64,000 nt of DNA from Minisyncoccota bacterium (GCA_031291905.1 JARLIC010000137.1:51762-115761); one strand, 5' to 3'. Shown: positions 32,887 through 62,909, numbered from the stretch's first letter. Numbers and translations: made by a program. The notes: a model not told the origin generated them from the sequence alone.

Positions 32887-33318
32887 TTAGGCGCCGACTT
32901 CGGTCCAGCGTTCGTCGTCCCAATCGCTCGTCATCGCCTCGTAGGTTCCGTCGTGCTGGGCCGGCGGCGGCGGCTGGATATTGTGCTTGGCCCCGTAGAT
33001 CGCCATCGCACGAACGACGAGCGGCGGCGGATTGCCGGTGGTCGCGGTCAGCGTGTCCCACCACTGGTGCGGGCCGTCTCCCTCGATCGCGACCTGGCGG
33101 CAGAAGTCGCACCGGAGGGCGGCCAGATCGTAGCGTCGCAGGAGTCGGGTTGATCGCTGTGTCGACCGGGTGCAGCGAGGGCAGGGGGGGCCGTCGTGCT
33201 TGATCACGACCTGGACTTCATCGTCCGGCACGTCGGCTTCGACGGCTTCAATAATGGCGTCTTCGGCATCGCGGGGCTTCGGGGGACGGCCGCGACGTTT
33301 GGTCTCGATCGTGCTCAT
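32887..33318 (-). CDS. basic zinc-ribbon protein (KRRGRPPKP; CPRC...CDFC)
   Basis: Overlaps the TerL stop by 4 nt. Confidence 0.45.
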   Translation of the reverse strand: MSTIETKRRGRPPKPRDAEDAIIEAVEADVPDDEVQVVIKHDGPPCPRCTRSTQRSTRLLRRYDLAALRCDFCRQVAIEGDGPHQWWDTLTATTGNPPPLVVRAMAIYGAKHNIQPPPPAQHDGTYEAMTSDWDDERWTEVGA

Positions 33319-35864
33319 GCTACCTCTATGTCCGTGTCATGCCACGAGTCGGGCCACCAGCGGGGGTCTTGCCAATCTTGCTGGGCGGCTCGATCTTTTT
33401 CGATCTTCTCCAGCCACGCCCGCTCCAGCCGTTCGCGTTCCATGCGTTCGCGTTCTTCGGGGGGGATGGCGGCTGGGCCACGCTTCTGGACTTCAAGAGA
33501 GGCGTAGGCGAGCACGTCGACTGTGTCGTCGTGGGCACCGTTAGGAAAGGTCATCAACTCGGTTTCGAGGTTGTCGAGTTCCGGGTGATGCTTGGGAAAC
33601 CAAATCTGACCGGCTTCCATGCGTATCTGGGCGTCTACGCTTCGGGCTATTTTATCGACGTTCCCGGTCTTGAGCGACTGGATCGTCAAGCCTTGCTTTC
33701 GAGCCGCTTTAATGACTAGGTTTTGCGCTGCAACATCTTCGATTCCACAATACGACGCCTTGTGCTTGTCCATCATCGCACGAATAGACGGGACGAGCTT
33801 ATCGCCGGTCATCTGTTCGCGATGCATGTCAAGAAGAATCAGGTCGCTGTCCGGCGTCACAGCCCACGCGCCGATGCATGTGTAGTCCGCACTGGTTCTT
33901 GTAGAAAATGCGAGGTCTACCGCCAGGAAAATTCGGCAGTGATCGAGGCTGAATGATCGTGTTTCAAGCCTGATGTAGTTTTCGTGCCGATCATAGTATT
34001 TGAAATCTGATCGCCGAAATAATCCACCACCCTCGGGGGAGGGGCGTTGCTGATACACAGAATTAAAAAGATGTTTTTGGGTTGCTTTGACACGAAGCAG
34101 GTATTCTTCGTTGAAGTGCTCGGGCCAGAGGGCTTCGCCTCGCTTGCGTCCCATCGGATCGTTATCTTCGGCCAAAGCCGGAAGATTATAGACGACCCAT
34201 TCCTCGCCCGTCTCTTTCGCTCGATCCAGGATCTTGCCGACCATGTCGGCTTCATGCCACCTCTGCATGACGACGACGATCGACCCACCGGGCTCAAGCC
34301 GCGTGTACGCGGTTCCGACGTACCAGTTCCAAGCCTTCTCGCGAAGCGTCTCGCTGAACGCATCCTCTTGCTTCTGGACGTCGTCAAGCACAAGTAGGTG
34401 CGCTCCCTTCCCGAGCAACGCGCCCCCCATGCCGACGGTCTGCATTCCGCCGCTGTGGCCCTTGAGCATCCAGCGATCGGCGGCCTTGCTATCCTGGCGG
34501 ATCTTGACTCCGAAGTATTTCTCGCCGTCCTCTTCGATCAGGTCGCGTACCTTGCGTCCCCACTCGGAAGCGAACTCAGCCTCATACGACGCCAGGATCA
34601 CTTTCTTGTCCGGGTTCCTCCCCAGATACCACGCCGGGAAGTACATCGACGTCATTGTGCTATTGCACGTCGGAATCATCGAGCGGCCACACAAAAACAT
34701 GTGGCTCGGTGAGTCGACTTCGATGCAAACAGTGTCGCCGGTTCCGACGTACGTGGCGCCGATGTATCGGTTCGGCTGCTTAACGCCGTCGCGACATCGC
34801 GGCGACTTCCGAGGCGACTTGCAGGCCCCTGCTTTATAGAACATGACGCGGAATTTGGGTCCGCAATCTTTTCCATAAAGCGTAGCTCTTCCAAGTATCA
34901 GGCTCGCCTTGGTTCCGAGTGAACGAACGAGTTCAAGGCAGCCTTCAGCCAATGCTAGGTCTGTCGAGCAAAACTCGACCTGGCCATCCGGAGCGACATG
35001 GCCATCCGTGTCGCAAAGCCCACGAAGCAACTCAAACCTTTGGCTCTCGCTCGCTCGCAGGTATTGGTTCGGGACATGCTTGTTCTTCAGCAGGCCGAGT
35101 TCGCGAAGCTTTCCGCCAAGGCCCATGACCCCAAATACGTTTTCGACCGACCGATCTCTCGTCTCGTAGCCGAGCCGCGAAAGTTCTTCCTTGAACCACT
35201 CAGTATCCAGGCCGTTGCACGTGATGCCGCAGTTCTCGGAGCAGCCGTTTCCAAGCCAAACACCGAGGACGTACGGGTCGATCGGCAAGTCGGCATCGGG
35301 AAGCTGAAGTGCCCCCTGCTTGCGGACCATAAGCCTCTTGTTTCGAGGCTTCGAGAGATAGGCGGTGTCTTTGACGTGGAATATATCGCGAGTCTTCGCC
35401 TTGCTGACGACCCACTCGTGATTTTGGTCGGCGAAGATTTCATCGCCGTCGTCGGTTGTTACTCGGTAGATCGGGCGGTTCTTCCAGACGGGAGACTTTG
35501 CCACAACGTTACAGGGCTGACCGTCTTCATTAAAGACCTGATCGCCCGGCTTCAGTTCCCCTATCGTCGTCCAGCCGGAAGGCGTCGGGATCGGGGTGCT
35601 CAGGGCTAAGGCTTTCCCGTGCCTCGGTGGCACCGTCACAATTAATCGTTTGATCCGGCCCTCCGCCACATCCATCATCTTCTGCGTCAAGAAGAGAAGA
35701 TGTTTCGCCGGCTTCCACTGAAATTCGCTCGAAAGATGTGCATAGTGCGCGGGGCTCAGGTTCGCTATATGCTTCTCTAGGCTGAATCGCTCCTGCGAGT
35801 TGAGTGAGGCCGCCAAGGAGCGTAAGGACTCGATCTGTTGCGGCGTCTCCATTGAGGTGATCAA
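33315..35864 (-). CDS. terminase large subunit interrupted by an intein
   Basis: N-terminal ATPase region runs through the Walker A up to VTVPPRHGK. It resumes as STMTSMYFPAWYLG.. after ~317 inserted residues. C-terminal RNase-H-like nuclease (FLAVDLAFS...DSDLILLD). Confidence 0.85.
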   Translation of the reverse strand: MITSMETPQQIESLRSLAASLNSQERFSLEKHIANLSPAHYAHLSSEFQWKPAKHLLFLTQKMMDVAEGRIKRLIVTVPPRHGKALALSTPIPTPSGWTTIGELKPGDQVFNEDGQPCNVVAKSPVWKNRPIYRVTTDDGDEIFADQNHEWVVSKAKTRDIFHVKDTAYLSKPRNKRLMVRKQGALQLPDADLPIDPYVLGVWLGNGCSENCGITCNGLDTEWFKEELSRLGYETRDRSVENVFGVMGLGGKLRELGLLKNKHVPNQYLRASESQRFELLRGLCDTDGHVAPDGQVEFCSTDLALAEGCLELVRSLGTKASLILGRATLYGKDCGPKFRVMFYKAGACKSPRKSPRCRDGVKQPNRYIGATYVGTGDTVCIEVDSPSHMFLCGRSMIPTCNSTMTSMYFPAWYLGRNPDKKVILASYEAEFASEWGRKVRDLIEEDGEKYFGVKIRQDSKAADRWMLKGHSGGMQTVGMGGALLGKGAHLLVLDDVQKQEDAFSETLREKAWNWYVGTAYTRLEPGGSIVVVMQRWHEADMVGKILDRAKETGEEWVVYNLPALAEDNDPMGRKRGEALWPEHFNEEYLLRVKATQKHLFNSVYQQRPSPEGGGLFRRSDFKYYDRHENYIRLETRSFSLDHCRIFLAVDLAFSTRTSADYTCIGAWAVTPDSDLILLDMHREQMTGDKLVPSIRAMMDKHKASYCGIEDVAAQNLVIKAARKQGLTIQSLKTGNVDKIARSVDAQIRMEAGQIWFPKHHPELDNLETELMTFPNGAHDDTVDVLAYASLEVQKRGPAAIPPEERERMERERLERAWLEKIEKDRAAQQDWQDPRWWPDSWHDTDIEVA
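34662..35612 (-). mobile_element. intein with LAGLIDADG homing endonuclease inserted in the terminase P-loop
   Basis: Hint N-blocks ALALSTPIPTPSGWTTIGELKPGDQVFNEDG and ..IFADQNHEWVV. Two LAGLIDADG motifs: YVLGVWLGNGCS and LLRGLCDTDGHV. C-terminal block ..VCIEVDSPSHMFLCGRSMIPTCN followed by S. Confidence 0.7.
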
Positions 35865-36345
35865 TCTCGATCCTCTGCACGAACATCCCGTGGTACTTGG
35901 CGAGTTTGTCCATCGCCTCGGCCGCGTCGTGGAACTTGACCTCGATCGCGCCGCTCGGGTGGATCTTGAGATCCTTGATCAGGTTGCCCTTCTTGAGCTT
36001 CTTGACCTTCTTCAGGTCCAGCACAGGCTTCTCGATCGGCTCGCCGCTGGAGTCGAGCTTGACGTTGCCTCTGGCGTCCACGTCTTCAACGAACTCGACG
36101 AACTCCATCACGTCCAGTGAGGCGATCGTCGACAGTCGTGCCAGAACCTCGGCGACCGGCATCGCCCCGGATTCTTCGAGCTTCTGTTCGAGGTATCCGC
36201 TGATCACCCTGCTTTTGAGTAGTTGAAAGGCGGCCGACTCAGGATTCGCGTACCCCGCCATCTTCGCGGCTTTGACCGCGTTGTCTTTGGCGTCGCCAAG
36301 GTAGTAGTGGACGAACAGACGTTGGCGGTGGTTGAGCGTCGACAT
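35530..36345 (-). CDS. terminase small subunit
   Basis: N-terminus LNHRQRLFVHYYLGDAKDNAVKAAKMAGYANPESAAFQLLK fits the terminase small-subunit pattern. The 3' 335 nt overlap the TerL ORF in another frame. Confidence 0.65.
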   Translation of the reverse strand: MSTLNHRQRLFVHYYLGDAKDNAVKAAKMAGYANPESAAFQLLKSRVISGYLEQKLEESGAMPVAEVLARLSTIASLDVMEFVEFVEDVDARGNVKLDSSGEPIEKPVLDLKKVKKLKKGNLIKDLKIHPSGAIEVKFHDAAEAMDKLAKYHGMFVQRIEIDHLNGDAATDRVLTLLGGLTQLAGAIQPREAYSEPEPRALCTSFERISVEAGETSSLLDAEDDGCGGGPDQTINCDGATEARESLSPEHPDPDAFRLDDDRGTEAGRSGL

Positions 36346-36352
36346 GGGCGGT

Positions 36353-36577
36353 TCAGCGGGAGTGCGTGGGGAGCAGGATGTGGCCTACCAGGGTTCCCAA
36401 AGCGAAAACCGCCACGACGAACGTCACGGGGTAATCGGCGAACAGGCGAGCGGCGACCCGAGAATACGTGGCGTGAACGCCGAACGTCTTCATCAGCCAA
36501 ACGTCGGACGCGATGATGAACAACGCGACCGCGACCATCAGGGCCAACGTCAGCCATTGCCGTTGAACATCGTCCAT
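36353..36577 (-). CDS. two-TM small membrane protein (holin-like candidate)
   Basis: 74 aa with two hydrophobic helices, just upstream of TerS. Confidence 0.4.
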   Translation of the reverse strand: MDDVQRQWLTLALMVAVALFIIASDVWLMKTFGVHATYSRVAARLFADYPVTFVVAVFALGTLVGHILLPTHSR

Positions 36578-36593
36578 CGCGTCGCCCCGCGAA

Positions 36594-37064
36594 TCAAAGC
36601 GTGATATTGATGATGTCCGGCAGGTTGCATTTCTTACCGGGGTCGGCCGGAACGGGGCAGACGTGCATCGCCAGCCGCTTCTTGAGCAGTTCGTAATTTC
36701 CGGTGACTTCCGACAATCTCAGGTCCGTGGCGACGATCTTGTCATTGGCGAGTTTGAGCTTTCCAAGGCAGTCGTCGACTTCAGCCTCCGACTTGTCGAG
36801 CCGCTTAAGGATCGTCTCGAATCGCTGATCGTTCGCCGCACGGTAGATCGCCCACCCGAGGCCCACCACGCCCAACGCCGCGCCGATGGCGATCGGAAAG
36901 AAATCGTCCTGAGCCGCCGCCCATGACACGGACGCGATCGAGGCGAGTACGCCCGTAACCAATGCGTTTCCGCTCGAAACACCGTGCAACATGATCATCC
37001 CCTCGATCGACGCCAAATCACCCGTGCCGCCTTGTAGACGGCCGACGCGAGGAGACCGATCCAA
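36594..37064 (-). CDS. membrane-anchored coiled-coil protein (spanin-like candidate)
   Basis: One TM segment followed by a KLKLANDKIVATDLRLSEV coiled-coil region. Confidence 0.35.
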   Translation of the reverse strand: MDRSPRVGRLQGGTGDLASIEGMIMLHGVSSGNALVTGVLASIASVSWAAAQDDFFPIAIGAALGVVGLGWAIYRAANDQRFETILKRLDKSEAEVDDCLGKLKLANDKIVATDLRLSEVTGNYELLKKRLAMHVCPVPADPGKKCNLPDIINITL

Positions 37065-37510
37065 ACCGCCGCCCAGAACACGCGAGCATCAAGGAAGGGC
37101 CGATCCTCCATGTCGATCGCGGGCATGAACCAGGCGATGGCGAACATGGCGGCGACCCACAACAGGATGCCTAGTTGCCCCACTTTTCCGCTTCCGGCTT
37201 GGGGGCTTGCAGCGATGCACGATCGGCTCGCCACGCACTGGTCAGCGTGATCGCCGGATGGTCGCGGGGCAACTTGTCCTGAAGGCTCTGAAGGAAGGTC
37301 GTCACGACCGTTCCAAGCTTGGCCCAATCCGATGCGGGGATGTTGGACACCGCCATGACGGCGATCTTGAAGGCGAATTTCGCGAGCGTGAGCCACATTG
37401 CCGGGCCTCCTTGAATCCTTGGAGTGGAGCAAACGAAAGCAGCCGGGCCTGGCGTCTCACGACGGTTGGCCCGGCGCTGCCCGACGATCGAAATCGGCGG
37501 GGGATATGAA

Positions 37511-37813
37511 TCAGGGGGTCGGTGCGGAAGCCGGGGGATTGACGTCGAGCACGGCCGCGTCGATCTTGGCCTTCAGGGCGTCACCCTTGGCTTCGATGGC
37601 GGCGACTTCGGCGGGGTCGGCGACCTTGGACTTCAGATCGGCGATTTCGGTGACGAGGGTCGTCACGCTGGCCTGAAACTCGGCGAGCTTCGCGGTGAAC
37701 GAGGCGTCGAGAGCGTCGATCTTGCTGTCGATATTGCTGAACAAGGCCATGATCATATTCTCCAGGGCGGGACTAAGGGCAACGGTATGAACGATATTAA
37801 TTGTGAGCGGCAT
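37511..37813 (-). CDS. small coiled-coil protein
   Basis: 100 aa, Ala/Lys/Asp-rich. Confidence 0.35.
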   Translation of the reverse strand: MPLTINIVHTVALSPALENMIMALFSNIDSKIDALDASFTAKLAEFQASVTTLVTEIADLKSKVADPAEVAAIEAKGDALKAKIDAAVLDVNPPASAPTP

Positions 37814-37820
37814 GGCGTCC

Positions 37821-38639
37821 TCAGATTGCGAGGGCGATGGGCGGCGTGTCGGCGTCGGATGGATCTTCGATCACGGCCTTGATCGTGTAGGCTTCTTGGT
37901 AGCCGGTCGCGTTCCAGTGATCTTCCTTGTACCAGCCGAAGCCGTTCTGGCCCCACGCACGACTCCACGACCCGCAATGCCTCAACGCCGGCTTCCCGTT
38001 CCGCAGCGTCTTCTTGCCGCCCGCGATCAGGATGGCGTGATTTCCCGGACCGCGATCGACGCCCATGCAGCCTTCGGAATCGAGGTTGCTGTACGTGTTG
38101 CCGACCTGGATGGCCAGGATCACCGCACGACGACGGCCGCCGGCCTCACTCTGGACCTCTTCCCAGCTATTAAGCTGCTGGTCGATCTCGAAGCGGAATC
38201 GGAGGGCGTTCGCGACAGCTTTTGCCGAGAAGCTTCGCGGATTGGCAAGTGACGCGGGGATCTGGCCGACCTCGCAAATGCCGACCTTGGCGATCTGGGC
38301 CGCCGCGTCCAAGATGCTGGTCCCGACGTTCCAGCCGCCGGTCGCGACCGAGTAGGAGTACAACGGCTCAAGCTGGGCGTGCGGTTGCCCCGACTGGAGC
38401 CGGGCGAACATGAGACCCTGTGTCGAGCTGTAGTGCGTGCAGCCGTTGTAGCCGTTCTGGTCGAGCACCTTCAATTGGCTCGGCCAGTGATCCCAATCGG
38501 GGATCTCCGACGCTGGAATCACGCTGGACGCCATGCGCGGGATGGCGGATCGCAGGATCTCGGAACTGCGAGGCAGGCCAAGCAGAAACTTTTGTCCGCT
38601 GGGGGTGACGTGGCTACCGGAAGCGTATTGCGACATCAC
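37821..38639 (-). CDS. papain-like (C1 family) cysteine peptidase
   Basis: QNGYNGCTHYSS fits the Gln-Cys block. GPGNHAILIAGG fits the His block. SWSRAWGQNGFGWY fits the Asn-Trp block. Confidence 0.55.
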   Translation of the reverse strand: MMSQYASGSHVTPSGQKFLLGLPRSSEILRSAIPRMASSVIPASEIPDWDHWPSQLKVLDQNGYNGCTHYSSTQGLMFARLQSGQPHAQLEPLYSYSVATGGWNVGTSILDAAAQIAKVGICEVGQIPASLANPRSFSAKAVANALRFRFEIDQQLNSWEEVQSEAGGRRRAVILAIQVGNTYSNLDSEGCMGVDRGPGNHAILIAGGKKTLRNGKPALRHCGSWSRAWGQNGFGWYKEDHWNATGYQEAYTIKAVIEDPSDADTPPIALAI

Positions 38640-39271
38640 TGGCCCCTCAACGTCTTGATCTTGGCCATCACGTCGTCGAACGATTCGGGATTCGACACGT
38701 CGATCACCGGGGCCGGTGGCGCCGGCTCAGCGTCGTACTTCACGCCGGTCGCGGCCTCCTGAACGACTAAAACGGCCCGCGACGAAGCGTAACCGTCCAT
38801 TTTCCTGGCCTTCAGCTCCGGGCTGCTCGCCCCGTAAGCCCTCCAGTGGCAGTCCAGGCCCTTCCAGTCCGTGCCGACCGCCGCATCGCGGATCGCGGAC
38901 GACTTCACCGTCGCGTCGTCCGGCTCGATGAAGGACAGAGTCAACGTCCTGTCGTGCTTGACGGGAGCCGGGACTGGTGCGGGGGACGGATCGGGCTTGG
39001 GTGCGGGAGAGGGGGCAGGCCCTGGAATCGGTGCGGGAATCGGAACCGGCGCCGGAATGGGAGTAGGGGCCGGGCCGTGGCCGAACATGGCGGCGCCGAT
39101 CGCGATCCCCATGACCAGCGTCTTGACCTGATCGTACACCCACGCACCAGCGCCCATCGCCGCGCCTTCAACCTGAACCAACGCCTGATAGGCGGGAGTC
39201 TGGGCGGCTGCGGGGTCTGGCATGGGAAGCCCTTTGGAAAAGAAGGGACGTGGAGCAGGCAACGCCGACAT
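38636..39271 (-). CDS. membrane-anchored protein with PAPVPIPAP-type Pro-rich linker and C-terminal globular domain
   Basis: TM segment LVMGIAIGAAMF, then PAP repeats (DNA repeats at 38985-39065). Confidence 0.45.
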   Translation of the reverse strand: MSALPAPRPFFSKGLPMPDPAAAQTPAYQALVQVEGAAMGAGAWVYDQVKTLVMGIAIGAAMFGHGPAPTPIPAPVPIPAPIPGPAPSPAPKPDPSPAPVPAPVKHDRTLTLSFIEPDDATVKSSAIRDAAVGTDWKGLDCHWRAYGASSPELKARKMDGYASSRAVLVVQEAATGVKYDAEPAPPAPVIDVSNPESFDDVMAKIKTLRGQ

Positions 39272-39362: not shown

Positions 39363-39692
39363 TCAGGCGGATTGAGACGCACGCCGTTCGCGGCGGGTCT
39401 GATTCGACTTGGCGGGAGATGGGGCGGGAGTGGGCGATTCGGCTGACGCCGCCTTGGGCTCGGGTTTTGGGTCCGTAAGCGGGTCGCGTTGGAGAATTCC
39501 AAGATGGTCGACGCCCGATTTATGGCACACGGCACATGTGCAGAGCGATCCTCTTGGAATCTCAGAGACCCCGGTTCCCCGGCACCGTCCGCAAGTTGCG
39601 TGATCCACGAACCCCGTGGACCGACATGACTTACACGGATGCACATCTTTACATGTGAGTTGAGAGTAAGGCTTTGAGGATGCGCCGAACAT
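39363..39692 (-). CDS. DnaJ-type zinc-finger (CxxCxGxG x2) small protein
   Basis: CKSCRSTG and CGRCRGTG repeats. A further CTCAVCHKSG follows. Start taken at internal Met. Confidence 0.45.
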   Translation of the reverse strand: MFGASSKPYSQLTCKDVHPCKSCRSTGFVDHATCGRCRGTGVSEIPRGSLCTCAVCHKSGVDHLGILQRDPLTDPKPEPKAASAESPTPAPSPAKSNQTRRERRASQSA

Positions 39693-39978
39693 CAGGACGA
39701 GTTCCGGACCCTCGACTCGCGGCAACGGCGGAGTCCAGTCTGCCCAAATATTCTTCCGTGACATGCCGGTTCTTCACCTTTTCTGGCATCTGCTTGAGGT
39801 AGTCGGAAATAACCGTGAAATCAACCTCGAAGCATTCGGCGATATCCCTGAGAGGGATACCCGCCCGGTGCAGGTCGCTCCAGATCAGGACCGTGGCTCG
39901 AATCTCATTGAGTTTGCCGGCAGGTTCGTCTTTATGCGGAGGCTCTATCTGGATTCCGCGTTCGTCGACCCAACTCAT
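39649..39978 (-). CDS. HTH DNA-binding protein
   Basis: RATVLIWSDLHRAGIPLRDIAECFEVDFTVISDYL resembles a sigma region-4/resolvase-type HTH. Confidence 0.45.
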   Translation of the reverse strand: MSWVDERGIQIEPPHKDEPAGKLNEIRATVLIWSDLHRAGIPLRDIAECFEVDFTVISDYLKQMPEKVKNRHVTEEYLGRLDSAVAASRGSGTRPDVRRILKALLSTHM

Positions 39979-41040: not shown

Positions 41041-41349
41041 TTACTCAGTTCGCTCGATCGCCGCTATCGCCCACATCAGACATTGCTCAAGATTCGTCAG
41101 CGCCGATGACTGCTCACGCGACGCGGATGAGTGGTCGACGATGGACAAGGCGAGATTCTTGGCATCGTCCCGAAGTAACGCGAGAGGGATAACCTTGTCA
41201 GCCCGAACAGTGAGCTTTGCGGCGAACCGCTTCTCGACTTCTTCGCGGAATCGCTCGGCGCGAGTCTTTCCGTCATCGATATGAACAGCGTAGATGGGTG
41301 GCGGGTTATCTCTCACCGAACTTGGAGCCGGGTACACAGGGTTCATCAA
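41041..41349 (-). CDS. hypothetical protein
   Basis: ORF. Confidence 0.35.
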   Translation of the reverse strand: MMNPVYPAPSSVRDNPPPIYAVHIDDGKTRAERFREEVEKRFAAKLTVRADKVIPLALLRDDAKNLALSIVDHSSASREQSSALTNLEQCLMWAIAAIERTE

Positions 41350-41948
41350 AGCTCTCCTTCAAAAACCGATCCGCCGAAGTAGTCGATCACATCGAACTCA
41401 CGCGGGCGGGCGAACGGAATGTCGTCTTCCTGAAAAGCGTCCACCTCGGCCTGGCTGACAGGAACCGTTCGCCCCTGCCCACCCTGCCCGTTGTATCCGC
41501 CGCCGCCACGACCTTGCGGTGCGGGACCGCGACCCTGGGGAGGACCGCTGCGCGACTCGGCTTGCGGCTGGCGTTCGTTTCCGCCTTGGCTGCGCGGTCC
41601 GTCTTCGTCGCGAGCCTTAGCCTCAAGGTTCTGGACCCGGTCGGCGTTCACCTTGATTTTGCTCCGTTTCTCGCCGGTCGCCTTGTCGTCCCACTGGTCC
41701 ATCTTGAGCGAGCCTTCGACGAAGATCAGGTTGCCCTTGTGCAAGGTATTGCAGGCCCGCTCCGCCGCCGCACCCCAGACGGTCGCGTCGATATAGAGGA
41801 CTTCTTCCTTCCACTCGTCGTTCTTGTCCTTCCATGACCGATTGACGGCCATGCGGAGTTCGGTCACGGCCGATCCGCTTGGAATGCGGCGCAACTCGGG
41901 CTCGAAAGTCAGTCGGCCCATGAGTTGGACCTTATTTAAGTCAGCCAT
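41346..41948 (-). CDS. ssb: single-stranded DNA-binding protein
   Basis: N-terminal OB pattern MADLNKVQLMGRLTFEPELR..SGSAV..LRMAVNRSWKDK. Gly/Gln-rich tail ending EDDIPF plus ~20 extra residues. Confidence 0.8.
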   Translation of the reverse strand: MADLNKVQLMGRLTFEPELRRIPSGSAVTELRMAVNRSWKDKNDEWKEEVLYIDATVWGAAAERACNTLHKGNLIFVEGSLKMDQWDDKATGEKRSKIKVNADRVQNLEAKARDEDGPRSQGGNERQPQAESRSGPPQGRGPAPQGRGGGGYNGQGGQGRTVPVSQAEVDAFQEDDIPFARPREFDVIDYFGGSVFEGEL

Positions 41949-58877: not shown

Positions 58878-58881
58878 AGCG

Positions 58882-59496
58882 ATGGCCGCAAAGACCACCA
58901 GGATCAAGAGGCTGACCAAGAAGAAGAAGGATGAGGCTGCGAAGAACGTCCCGTTGGCCAAGCACATCGCGAAGAAAATGGGATGGCGAGATCTTCCGAT
59001 GGAGGATCAGATCCAAGAGGCGTCCGTCGGCCTGTGCAAAGCGGTGAACGGATTCGATCCATCCAGGGGAACGAAGCTGAGCACCATGATCGGCCGATGT
59101 GCGATGAACGAGATCTTGTCTGCGAGGCGGAAGTACGGTTTGATCCGGATACCAGACTACCTCCAAGAGAAAGCGAACGCCGAACACGGCCTCCAGAAGC
59201 ACGTCAAACAGGCCGGAAAGCGGCTCAGTATCGACGGGATATCGGAGGACTCGGAATTTCATCCAAGGTGCCCCGAAGACGACGACTCCGAGTTCGGCTG
59301 GAAGGCGATGCGGGCGGTTCGATGGGCCGTCCAGAAGCTTCCGCCGATCGAGCGGGACGTGATTCGCGGGCTGATGTTCCGCCAGGAAACAGCCCGCGAA
59401 CTGGGCAAGAAGCACGGCGTCCACGTCTCGGTGGTGCGTCACCTGAAAGACACAGCCTTGGCGAAGTTGCGAGCGAGTTTGGTTAAGCACGTGTAA
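58882..59496 (+). CDS. sigma-70 family sigma factor
   Basis: Region 2: PMEDQIQEASVGLCKAVNGFDPSRGTKLSTMIGRCAMNEI. Region 4: IERDVIRGLMFRQETARELG...VSVVRHLKDTALAKLR. Confidence 0.75.
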   Translation: MAAKTTRIKRLTKKKKDEAAKNVPLAKHIAKKMGWRDLPMEDQIQEASVGLCKAVNGFDPSRGTKLSTMIGRCAMNEILSARRKYGLIRIPDYLQEKANAEHGLQKHVKQAGKRLSIDGISEDSEFHPRCPEDDDSEFGWKAMRAVRWAVQKLPPIERDVIRGLMFRQETARELGKKHGVHVSVVRHLKDTALAKLRASLVKHV

Positions 59497-59511
59497 ATAA
59501 CTGGGGGCGAC

Positions 59512-60072
59512 ATGGCCAAAAAGAAGCCGACCGCGAAAGGATTGATTCCCTTTGACCTGCCATTGAATGAGGAACAAAAAGAACTGGCGGCGTCGTGCGA
59601 GAGGATGGTGGTGAACATAGCGAAGAAGTCGGCGAATCGGAACAACAACTTCGACGACCTGATCGACGCCGGGCAGATGGGCCTCATACGAGCCGCCCAG
59701 ACATACGACGAGGCGAAAGGTGCGTTTTCGACGCACGCGTATCGGTGGATTTTAGCGAAAGTGCTGAGAGCAAGACATGAGCTAAACAAGAACAACGCCA
59801 GAAAGGATTACGCATTCGACGTGCGGAATCTTCCGTCTCGCCCGGCCGAAGACACCTGGTTTGACCCAGATGTCGTATTGCAAGCCTTCGACTCCCTTCC
59901 CAGGCAACTTCAGGACGTTGTTCGACTCAGGGTCTGGGATGACGACGCCAAGAAGCTGGATAAGGTCGCCAGGCGGCTGGGCTGCGTAAAACAAACGGTC
60001 TTAACCCGCCAAGCCAAGGCGTTCGGAATCCTCCGCGACACGCTCTGGCGATACGCACGGGAGGCTTCATGA
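59512..60072 (+). CDS. sigma-70 family sigma factor (second, adjacent)
   Basis: Region 2: FDDLIDAGQMGLIRAAQTYDEAKGAFSTHAYRWI. Region 4: LQDVVRLRVWDDDAKKLDKVARRLGCVKQTVLTRQAKAFGILR. Confidence 0.75.
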   Translation: MAKKKPTAKGLIPFDLPLNEEQKELAASCERMVVNIAKKSANRNNNFDDLIDAGQMGLIRAAQTYDEAKGAFSTHAYRWILAKVLRARHELNKNNARKDYAFDVRNLPSRPAEDTWFDPDVVLQAFDSLPRQLQDVVRLRVWDDDAKKLDKVARRLGCVKQTVLTRQAKAFGILRDTLWRYAREAS

Positions 60073-61774: not shown

Positions 61775-61965
61775 CCACCGGCATCACCAAGGCTGCCCTG
61801 GATCAACTGCCGCCCTTCGAGGCTTGGGTGATCAAACGCCGGCTTGTCGACAAAGAGAACTCGTGGAGGCGACTGGAATCTGAATGCGGTCTAGCCGTCT
61901 ACCGTTTAAAGCAGATCGAGCGTGAGGCTTTACTGAAGTTGTTTAATCCCGAGGGACAAGTATGA
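61771..61965 (+). CDS. small sigma-region-4-like HTH protein
   Basis: ECGLAVYRLKQIEREALLKL resembles a region 4.2 helix-turn-helix. Confidence 0.35.
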   Translation: MTTGITKAALDQLPPFEAWVIKRRLVDKENSWRRLESECGLAVYRLKQIEREALLKLFNPEGQV

Positions 61966-62909
61966 CCCGCCCCCCGATCCCGCTTCTTGCCCCGAACGTC
62001 ACTTGCGGCTTCCCGTATTTCGATCCCGACGTCTTCGAGACAGGCTTGGGCGTCCAGTATTTCAAGGAAGCCGGCGTCGCACTGATCTCGCGTCCTAACG
62101 TGAATATCGCGGCGGCTGCCGGGTTCCTGGACAGCTTTGACGACAGCCTTGGGTTTCGCGAGTACCTGTTCGACCCCGTGAATATCGACGACGGGGCGCA
62201 AGCGGCCAAGTACGCGGGACAGGGGTGCTATCAAAGCTATAGTGCGAAGAGGACCTGGAACAAGGACGCCGGAAGGTATCTCGACCACATCAAGGAGTTA
62301 GGTCACGGCTCCGTTCTTGAAGCGGCCAGTTATGGGTTCCAGTTCTGGGGAGTCGACCGAGCACTTACGCATGAGTTGGTCCGGCACCGGATGCTCAGTT
62401 TTTCACAGACATCGCAACGTTTCTGCGATGACAAAGCGTTGCGATTTGTTGAGAGGCCGGAGTATCAGCCCGAAAGATTGCCGGACGACGCGGGCGACGA
62501 ACTTAAGAGAGATGTCGCGTGGGCAGACACGAAGTTTCAGCAGATCATTAATAGTTTCGTGAGTCATTACGAATTATCCGCCGAGAATCTTGGCTCCGCT
62601 CGCGACCACGGCCATCCGCTGCTTCAAGGCGGCTCGGCGACCGAGAAGCGTAAGCATCTCAATCAGGTCGCGAGAGAATGCCTTCCCAATTGTTGCGAGG
62701 CCCCGATCGTCGTCACCGGCAACGCGAGGGCTTGGCGCGGATTCCTGGACCAGCGAGCCACGCCGCACGCCGACGTGCCGATCCGCGAGTTGGCCATCAA
62801 GGTTCTGAAAGCGTTATTGGTGACGAGTCCATTGTTGTTCGGCGACTATGAGATCGCGAAGCAGGATGATGGAACCGAGGCCGCTACGACCGCCTACCGC
62901 AAGGTCTGA
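61962..62909 (+). CDS. thyX: flavin-dependent thymidylate synthase
   Basis: ThyX signature RHRMLSFSQTSQR (RHRxxxxxxxSxR). Confidence 0.8.
   Translation: MTRPPIPLLAPNVTCGFPYFDPDVFETGLGVQYFKEAGVALISRPNVNIAAAAGFLDSFDDSLGFREYLFDPVNIDDGAQAAKYAGQGCYQSYSAKRTWNKDAGRYLDHIKELGHGSVLEAASYGFQFWGVDRALTHELVRHRMLSFSQTSQRFCDDKALRFVERPEYQPERLPDDAGDELKRDVAWADTKFQQIINSFVSHYELSAENLGSARDHGHPLLQGGSATEKRKHLNQVARECLPNCCEAPIVVTGNARAWRGFLDQRATPHADVPIRELAIKVLKALLVTSPLLFGDYEIAKQDDGTEAATTAYRKV

Follow-up and report, generated by a model that had tools for sequence, protein, structure and literature searches.

The 64,000-nucleotide stretch analysed here (the window; GCA_031291905.1, JARLIC010000137.1:51762-115761, deposited as a Minisyncoccota bacterium) contains a compact cluster of seven genes at 36353-39271 that is built around a papain-like C1 peptidase. 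On balance, the cluster reads as a phage lysis module, with a putative two-part C1-type lysin made up of the peptidase and a membrane-tethered partner, and with holin-like proteins for its release. Lysis is the best-supported reading because of the position of the module, the lack of a canonical lysin in the surveyed sequence, the occurrence of secreted partner-peptidase fusions, and the presence of distant homologues in the lysis cassettes of cultured phages.

The peptidase is encoded by a 272-amino-acid (aa) open reading frame (ORF) on the minus strand at 37821-38639, counted from a GTG start; from the ATG at 38636 it is 271 aa long, the form deposited as NCBI protein P0001. The motifs quoted in the preliminary description (QxGxxGC, GNHA and SWxxxWGxNGFGW) are all present in this ORF and are backed by profile and model. 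The first reads Q61-N-G-Y-N-G-C67 and lies at 38439-38459 (-), with its codons checked; by this assignment Gln61 forms the oxyanion hole and Cys67 is the nucleophile. The His block (G199-N-H201-A) and the G223-S224-W225 block lie at 37965-38045 (-), the latter continuing as S224-W-S-R-A-W-G-Q-N-G-F-G-W. In an alignment of 60 diverse homologues, Q61, C67, H201 and W225 are invariant, and Ser224 is present and invariant or nearly so. The C1 triad claimed earlier therefore stands for Cys and His, together with the oxyanion-hole Gln, but its third residue, normally Asn, is Gly223.

By itself, the ORF matches nothing in Pfam or PHROG, even at E<=1, and finds only sub-threshold matches in the PDB. 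A profile built from the ORF and six homologues aligns end to end with C1 peptidases of solved structure (E ~1e-5), with xylellain (3ois) as the best match (E 1.1e-5) and procerain and cathepsins L, B and K among the others. Several homologues also score above the threshold that Pfam sets for PF00112; for example, P0009 reaches 39 bits against a cut-off of 20.7. C1 membership of the window ORF is thus established, at the level of sequence, through intermediate homologues. An exhaustive profile search recovered 3,554 clusters at 50% identity, mostly of ~270 aa and mostly metagenomic.

Structure prediction points the same way. AlphaFold2 gave an unusable model with 7 sequences (predicted local distance difference test, pLDDT, 46), and the 60-sequence alignment was needed to reach a pLDDT of 93.6 and a predicted template modelling score of 0.91. 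The model shows the two lobes of a papain fold, the nucleophilic Cys opening the central helix and the His lying on the beta-barrel lobe. In a Foldseek search of the PDB, the best 50 matches are all C1 peptidases, with template modelling (TM) scores up to 0.75; xylellain 3ois is again at the top (E 1.7e-12; TM 0.69-0.70 over the whole length, chain B), and Cwp84, a surface-layer-associated protease of Clostridioides difficile, is among the matches. In BFVD, uncultured-phage proteins named Peptidase C1A match at TM 0.84-0.87, while other phage proteins of the same fold are named peptidoglycan-binding or muramidase. No Pfam match was obtained to CHAP (PF05257) or NlpC-P60 (PF00877), the structural matches being to C1 instead. 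Profile, predicted structure and the Pfam matches of homologues thus uphold the earlier assignment to C1 rather than to a CHAP, NlpC/P60 or glycosidase lysin, and identify the 272-aa ORF as a papain-family C1 peptidase of the short, xylellain type.

The comparison with xylellain, from Xylella fastidiosa, is close in architecture. Both proteins are ~270 aa long with the Gln-Cys-His order, and in both a short N-terminal extension takes the place of the I29 propeptide. In the window peptidase, this extension is ~45 aa long and conserved (G-x-x-[FR]-x-L-G-x-x-P); a conserved, acidic, Pro-containing tail (EDPSDADTPP) closes the C-terminus. It is a single-domain protein, with no signal peptide or hydrophobic N-terminus in a Kyte-Doolittle scan and no I29 propeptide match in Pfam. 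The two enzymes are, however, only 17-18% identical, Gly223 replaces Asn, and the window peptidase, unlike xylellain, sits in a phage cassette with a dedicated exported partner.

Inteins were found in several homologues (P0009, P0025, P0030, P0052, P0065, P0071 and P0095); the window copy has none. In P0009, P0025, P0030 and P0052, the intein lies exactly before the catalytic Cys (…DQxGxGA/CFPAGT…VHN/CNGHAA…, with slashes at the intein boundaries), so that the nucleophile is the intein +1 residue. P0065, P0071 and P0095 have Pfam intein domains at the corresponding position, and some of these inteins include homing endonucleases. Judged from these sequences, the insertions would mark the catalytic Cys codon as one of the strongly conserved positions that inteins favour.

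The gene directly 5' of the peptidase encodes the partner. It runs from 39271 down to 38636 on the minus strand (211 aa when counted from the first ATG, or 195 aa in the public gene call, which begins at 39223), and its stop codon overlaps the peptidase ATG (TGATG), with a Shine-Dalgarno-like site, GAGGGG, upstream. The preliminary description had placed this Pro-linker protein after the peptidase, which is the reverse of the actual gene order. The protein consists of a Pro-rich N-terminus, an anchor at about residues 36-64, a Pro-rich linker at about 65-104 and a C-terminal domain of ~105 aa that ends in IKTLRGQ. The membrane anchor proposed for it is present as a Gly/Ala-rich segment with the core KTLVMGIAIGAAMFG, but this segment falls below the Kyte-Doolittle threshold for a transmembrane call. 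In locus L026, whose peptidase is 70% identical to that of the window, the partner has a more hydrophobic anchor. No match to the window partner was found in Pfam or PHROG.

Proteins of the same build recur beside related peptidases. Such a protein is encoded as a stand-alone gene, directly 5' of the peptidase or within two small genes of it, in 11 loci (L026, L004, L005, L006, L007, L009, L010, L012, L018, L019 and L020), and partner and peptidase are paired in all 12 of the related loci that could be judged. Apart from L026, the peptidases of these loci are only 24-35% identical to that of the window. The shared build starts with a signal peptide or anchor, continues with a Pro linker, which in some proteins is followed by an additional beta-rich domain, and closes with a C-terminal domain of ~95 aa; in L004, L005, L006, L018 and L020, the N-termini of the stand-alone partners resemble cleavable signal peptides. 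In L021 and at least 16 further homologues, the partner elements are fused N-terminal to the C1 domain in a single chain, in the order signal peptide or anchor, Pro linker, partner domain, C1 domain. These fusions argue that the two proteins are paired physically and functionally, and they place the catalytic domain outside the cytoplasmic membrane, so the enzyme would be expected to act there. Three fused homologues, P0034, P0074 and P0097, also have long Cys- and Pro-rich C-terminal tails, e.g. CGCGGTTDCACTPGDCACAACVKTKCDC….

The relationship of the window partner to the others is drawn from its build, its position, the fusions and a marginal profile score. With a hidden Markov model (HMM) of 7 stand-alone partners, it ranks first of 756 window ORFs at E 0.011, the next ORF scoring E 1; an HMM of all 20 partner domains gives it E 0.44. 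No Pfam family recurs among 21 members with the partner domain. A thioredoxin fold was considered for the C-terminal domain but gained no support: hhalign against Escherichia coli thioredoxin returned a probability of 0.5%, and the domain has no CxxC motif.

The position of the module is typical of phage lysis genes, which classically lie before the terminase genes, after the tail genes or at a prophage end. In the window, L010 and L026, it is accompanied by small membrane proteins and comes just ahead of the terminase genes; in L004 and L019, it follows the tail genes, in L004 also at the prophage end. Related loci were collected with a 7-sequence alignment, which returned one genome locus and nine viral loci. 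A survey for other lysins covered 78 window ORFs with Pfam, 10 further PHROG scans, and flanking stretches of 9 kb and 4.5 kb past the two window ends. These ~77 kb of the 119-kb source contig yielded no canonical lysin domain, and neither did the 126 ORFs examined within 10 kb of the gene in 8 related loci. A wall-binding connection appears in the homologue P0205, in which PF00112 is joined to an S-layer-homology (SLH) wall-binding domain.

Three or four small membrane proteins adjoin the peptidase and are conserved in L026; transmembrane segments were called with a Kyte-Doolittle scan. The run of small transmembrane proteins described earlier upstream of the terminases is borne out for g62, g74 and g132, whereas g100 has no such segment and g75 only a weak hydrophobic stretch at the N-terminus. 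The best holin candidate is g62 (36995-37183, -, 62 aa), whose two transmembrane segments are followed by a basic C-terminal end, WRRSRG. Two segments are also present in g74 (36353-36577, -, 74 aa). In g132 (36594-36992, -; 156 aa with the alternative start at 37064), one and possibly two N-terminal transmembrane segments precede a heptad-like helical region, and a C-terminal Cys pair (CPVPADPGKKC) is conserved; its identity to the L026 counterpart is 58%, counted from residue 29 in the long form. Candidate roles for g132 are holin, antiholin or i-spanin-like protein, and by eye it fits the inner-membrane part of a spanin. A two-component spanin of the Rz/Rz1 type was considered and set aside, the outer-membrane lipoprotein part not having been found in or beside g132. 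Among the related loci, lipoprotein-like coiled-coil proteins follow the peptidase in L010 only. The remaining two genes encode g100 (37511-37813, -, 100 aa), an Ala/Leu-rich, helical protein of coiled-coil-like appearance with no clear transmembrane segment and only weak apolipoprotein-like matches, and g75 (37171-37398, -, 75 aa), with a weakly hydrophobic N-terminal stretch only, whose gene overlaps that of g62 by 13 nt.

Distant homologues in cultured phages are found in predicted lysis modules. In Alicyclobacillus phage MMB025, the C1 domain is the N-terminal domain of a 753-aa endolysin (PV686781, CDS0095) that combines Peptidase_C1, Big_1, a GH25-like domain and PG_binding_1. In Thermoanaerobacterium phage THSA-485A, a C1A gene is flanked on one side by a lysin gene with GH25 and PG_binding_1 domains and on the other by a gene for a protein that is hydrophobic at its N-terminus. 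In Gordonia phages Aleemily, ObLaDi and Cafasso, a gene annotated as a 'cysteine protease' (gp29 in Aleemily) lies between lysin A and holin plus lysin B. By hhalign, the window peptidase is homologous to these C1 domains at probabilities of 98.2% (MMB025), 98.8% (THSA-485A) and 96.6% (Gordonia phages). Fusion of the catalytic domain to wall-binding or muralytic domains therefore occurs among distant homologues (MMB025 and P0205), and the neighbours in these lysis modules are an annotated holin or a product with an N-terminal hydrophobic segment. These phages infect Gram-positive hosts, combine the C1 domain with canonical muralytic and wall-binding domains and, unlike the window, have no Pro-linker partner.

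Parts of this picture have precedents. Xylellain-type C1A peptidases have already been reported as acquired by tailed phages (PMC10380794). C1A genes are on record in tailed phages, and in one deposited genome the label endolysin is already given to a C1-containing protein. The earlier view of the enzyme as an unusual lysin is accordingly fair in that its type is uncharacterised, but precedents exist in annotated phage genomes. In the literature searched, no paper was found in which a C1 peptidase is tested or proposed as an endolysin, and the cysteine protease gene goes unmentioned in the paper on the Gordonia lysis cassette. Three observations appear to be new: the conservation of the partner, its fusion to the peptidase and the presence of inteins at the catalytic Cys. 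Two further C1-like occurrences were noted: the 595-kb uncultured phage LR756511.1 has two different C1-like genes (449286-450005 and 481702-482505), and the jumbo Burkholderia phage FLC9 has one at 151577-152320, annotated as hypothetical and belonging to a more distant subfamily.

Several known lysis systems resemble the window module in part. PlyC is a two-component endolysin with catalytic and binding subunits from separate genes, and in mycobacteriophage Ms6 the lytic enzyme LysA likewise works with a second protein, Gp1. As with the window pair, the enzyme and the second protein come from adjacent, overlapping genes. The window pair has no sequence relationship to either, and partners of the window type differ in being membrane-anchored or secreted and often fused to the enzyme, with docking, activation or inhibition as conceivable roles. 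Signal-anchor-release (SAR) endolysins, such as P1 Lyz and phage 21 R21, are lysozymes or muramidases. The fused C1 homologues are like them in carrying an N-terminal anchor ahead of the catalytic domain, and the window partner in having a Gly/Ala-rich, weakly hydrophobic anchor; in the window, unlike in SAR endolysins, the anchor is on the partner and the peptidase has no hydrophobic segment. A chemical parallel lies in the CHAP, NlpC/P60 and C39-like lysin domains, which use Cys-His chemistry, belong to the papain-like superfamily and cut the wall (PMC10318531; PMC3314691). Examples are the LysK CHAP domain, PlyC and the N4 and N5 domains of mycobacteriophage lysin A. These domains form a structural cluster different from that of the window peptidase.

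From these observations we infer how the module might work, including its timing, export route, partner complex, substrate and lytic outcome. The partner would be made first and inserted in the cytoplasmic membrane, with its C-terminal domain in the periplasm. The peptidase, translated from the overlapping downstream gene and carrying no export signal, would accumulate in the cytoplasm. Late in infection, at least one of the small membrane proteins, with g62 as the best candidate and g132 and g74 as possible ones, would permeabilise the membrane in a holin-like manner, and the peptidase could then reach the envelope and associate with the partner. There, the Cys67/His201 dyad and the Gln61 oxyanion hole would cut peptide bonds of the wall. 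The likeliest targets are peptidoglycan stem peptides or cross-links, with envelope proteins as a second possibility.

A number of findings weigh against the lysis interpretation. To our knowledge, characterised C1 peptidases cut proteins and not peptidoglycan, and in the window and its closest relatives the classical Asn before Ser-Trp is a Gly (G-S-W), most of the wider family having N-S-W at this site. All three cultured-phage groups have the C1-like domain or gene in company with a canonical muralytic domain, which speaks for association with lysis and not for sufficiency. The window peptidase has no export signal, though its fused relatives carry their own, and the holin route is assumed. 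None of the membrane proteins of the cassette matches a holin or spanin family in Pfam or PHROG, and no ORF with a lipobox, as expected of an o-spanin, was seen in or beside g132. The homology of the window partner to the other partners is marginal (E 0.011), and a profile of the partner domain found nothing significant in the PDB. The lysin survey covered ~77 kb of the 119-kb contig, and Pfam is blind to novel lysins. Lastly, the only hint of a host is one relative in a Planctomycetales metagenome-assembled genome (MAG). As first proposed, the lysis reading thus keeps its support from position, from the lack of a canonical lysin in ~77 kb, from secreted fusions and from cultured-phage cassettes, but not from any holin or spanin match.

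The same facts can be read in other ways. The peptidase might be a lysis accessory that cleaves envelope proteins (S-layer or surface proteins, or proteins tying the outer membrane to the wall), with the true muralytic enzyme encoded elsewhere or unrecognisable. This account is unlikely but has real points in its favour: all characterised C1 enzymes are proteases, Cwp84 is among the structural matches, one homologue has an S-layer-homology domain, and one relative is in the genome of a member of the Planctomycetales, which have a protein-rich envelope. In THSA-485A and the Gordonia phages, moreover, the C1-like gene is an extra beside complete canonical lysins, and the lysin survey covered ~77 of 119 kb. 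Against this stand the lack of any other lysin in those ~77 kb or, in 8 related phages, at distances of up to 10 kb from the gene, and the C1 domain of MMB025, which occupies the endopeptidase position of multi-domain endolysins and is accompanied by a peptidoglycan-binding domain. Another, canonical endolysin elsewhere in the genome, together with no lytic activity of this ORF, had been named in the preliminary description as a refutation of the lysin assignment. No such endolysin was found in ~77 kb, and its discovery would not be decisive in any case, because the C1-like domains of THSA-485A, Gordonia phages and MMB025 accompany canonical muralytic domains.

Export outside lysis, for lysogenic conversion or superinfection exclusion through the remodelling of surface proteins or receptors, or for the processing of an exported phage protein, is a more improbable explanation. 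In its favour, both the partner and the fused forms use the general secretion route for export. The module lies at the end of a prophage in L004 and next to an integrase in L007, sites that conversion genes also occupy, and ~7 kb from an integrase in L020; in L020 and L021 it adjoins an Acb2/Tad1-like counter-defence gene. In the window, L010 and L026, by contrast, it occupies the late region before the terminases, among holin-like proteins; the window enzyme has no export signal of its own; and the cultured-phage homologues are in lysis cassettes, one of them inside an endolysin. It is very improbable that the peptidase is a virion-associated enzyme, degrading the wall at entry or maturing the head. 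Phage proteases are usually genes of the structural module, and the gene follows tail genes in L018, L019 and L004; yet secretion signals or anchors on the partners and the export of fused forms are a misfit with assembly in the cytoplasm, the window gene lies upstream of the terminases, not within the head or tail module, and the head genes of one related locus (portal, major capsid) include one for a ClpP-type protease, which fits the role of a prohead protease. A phage lysis module built around a C1-type lysin and its partner is still the interpretation that best accommodates the observations.

A broader proposal, which is possible but must be regarded as tentative, is that xylellain-type C1 peptidases with a membrane-tethered exported partner make up a phage lysin class that is large but has gone unrecognised. 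Obligately paired or fused, peptidase and partner would replace canonical muralytic enzymes in phages of little-studied Gram-negative-type hosts, possibly Planctomycetes among them. In such a class, the partner would control where and when the protease is active, with peptidoglycan peptides or envelope proteins as the substrate.

Characterised endolysin catalytic domains form a limited set, and papain-family C1 is not among them. If the lysis interpretation is true, it would add a new catalytic class with thousands of metagenomic members (the 3,554 clusters at 50% identity), in which a built-in partner may regulate or target the enzyme. It would also explain how many uncultured phages without a recognisable lysin leave their hosts. 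Should the target be envelope proteins, their cleavage would amount to a lysis strategy with no described example among tailed phages. For annotation, the rule that follows is to look for a C1-like gene preceded by a gene for a signal or anchor, a Pro linker and a small domain. The recurrent split and fused forms offer a natural system in which to learn how a protease is kept harmless until lysis.

All seven cassette genes are on the minus strand, and transcription runs from high to low coordinates in the order partner, peptidase, g100, g75, g62, g132 and g74, followed by TerS and TerL. The small terminase subunit gene, TerS (35530-36345, -; Pfam Terminase_2, E 4.4e-14; PHROG 51, E 2.5e-19), forms the downstream boundary. 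Scans for promoters and terminators returned fewer sites than expected by chance and were uninformative on operon structure. In L026, the order partner, peptidase, g100, g75, g62, g132, TerS is kept, with protein identities to the window of 49% for the partner, 53% for g100, 55% for g75, 57% for g62, 58% for g132 and 48% for TerS. This conservation shows the short cassette ORFs to be real genes. Identity is highest for the peptidase, at 70% (48-58% for the others). A counterpart of g74 is missing from L026, which marks g74 as accessory. By BLAST, the cassette neighbours of the window have no similarity to those of the distant loci.

The NCBI label of the source bin, 'Candidatus Pacebacteria', looks doubtful because the region has ~60% G+C and is phage sequence throughout. 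In a tblastn search of the window peptidase against cultured phages, the only match was one uncultured 595-kb phage, and a search with the portal protein found no cultured-phage match. As neither search gave a cultured relative, the source is best described as a large phage of an unplaced lineage, on a contig of at least 119 kb that bears the locus tag P4L67_05010. No tRNA genes were found in the window. In the relative from the Planctomycetales MAG, a bacterial-type YmdB-like gene directly follows the peptidase gene.

Downstream of the cassette, the TerL ORF (33315-35864, -) is 849 aa long; the public call starts later and gives 729 aa. It contains an apparent intein of ~317 aa (~34662-35612) with a LAGLIDADG homing endonuclease, inserted in the P-loop (…PPRHGK/ALAL … PTCN/STMTS…). 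The Terminase_6N match resumes at residue 402, and PHROG 38 matches two stretches of the protein.

Just upstream of the partner, g133 (39363-39764, -) has three CxxCxGxG-type repeats resembling a DnaJ zinc finger (CKSCRSTG, CGRCRGTG and CAVCHKSG); in L026, conservation is limited to the C-terminal third of the protein. Small Cys-rich proteins are also encoded near the module in L018 and L019. Further upstream, a 102-aa ORF at 41041-41349 (-) matches the Acb2/Tad1 hairpin domain PF24729 (E 2.6e-9) and comes directly after the SSB gene (41346-41948). Acb2/Tad1 is an anti-CBASS and anti-Thoeris sponge family.

Elsewhere, the window encodes a sliding clamp (DNA polymerase III beta), an RNA ligase and a C5 cytosine methylase. 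Towards its right end, at ~58880-60070 (+) and 61962-62909 (+), are a pair of neighbouring sigma-70-family genes together with genes for a ThyX thymidylate synthase and a DUF5131 protein, and a 1,381-aa ORF lies just past the right window end.

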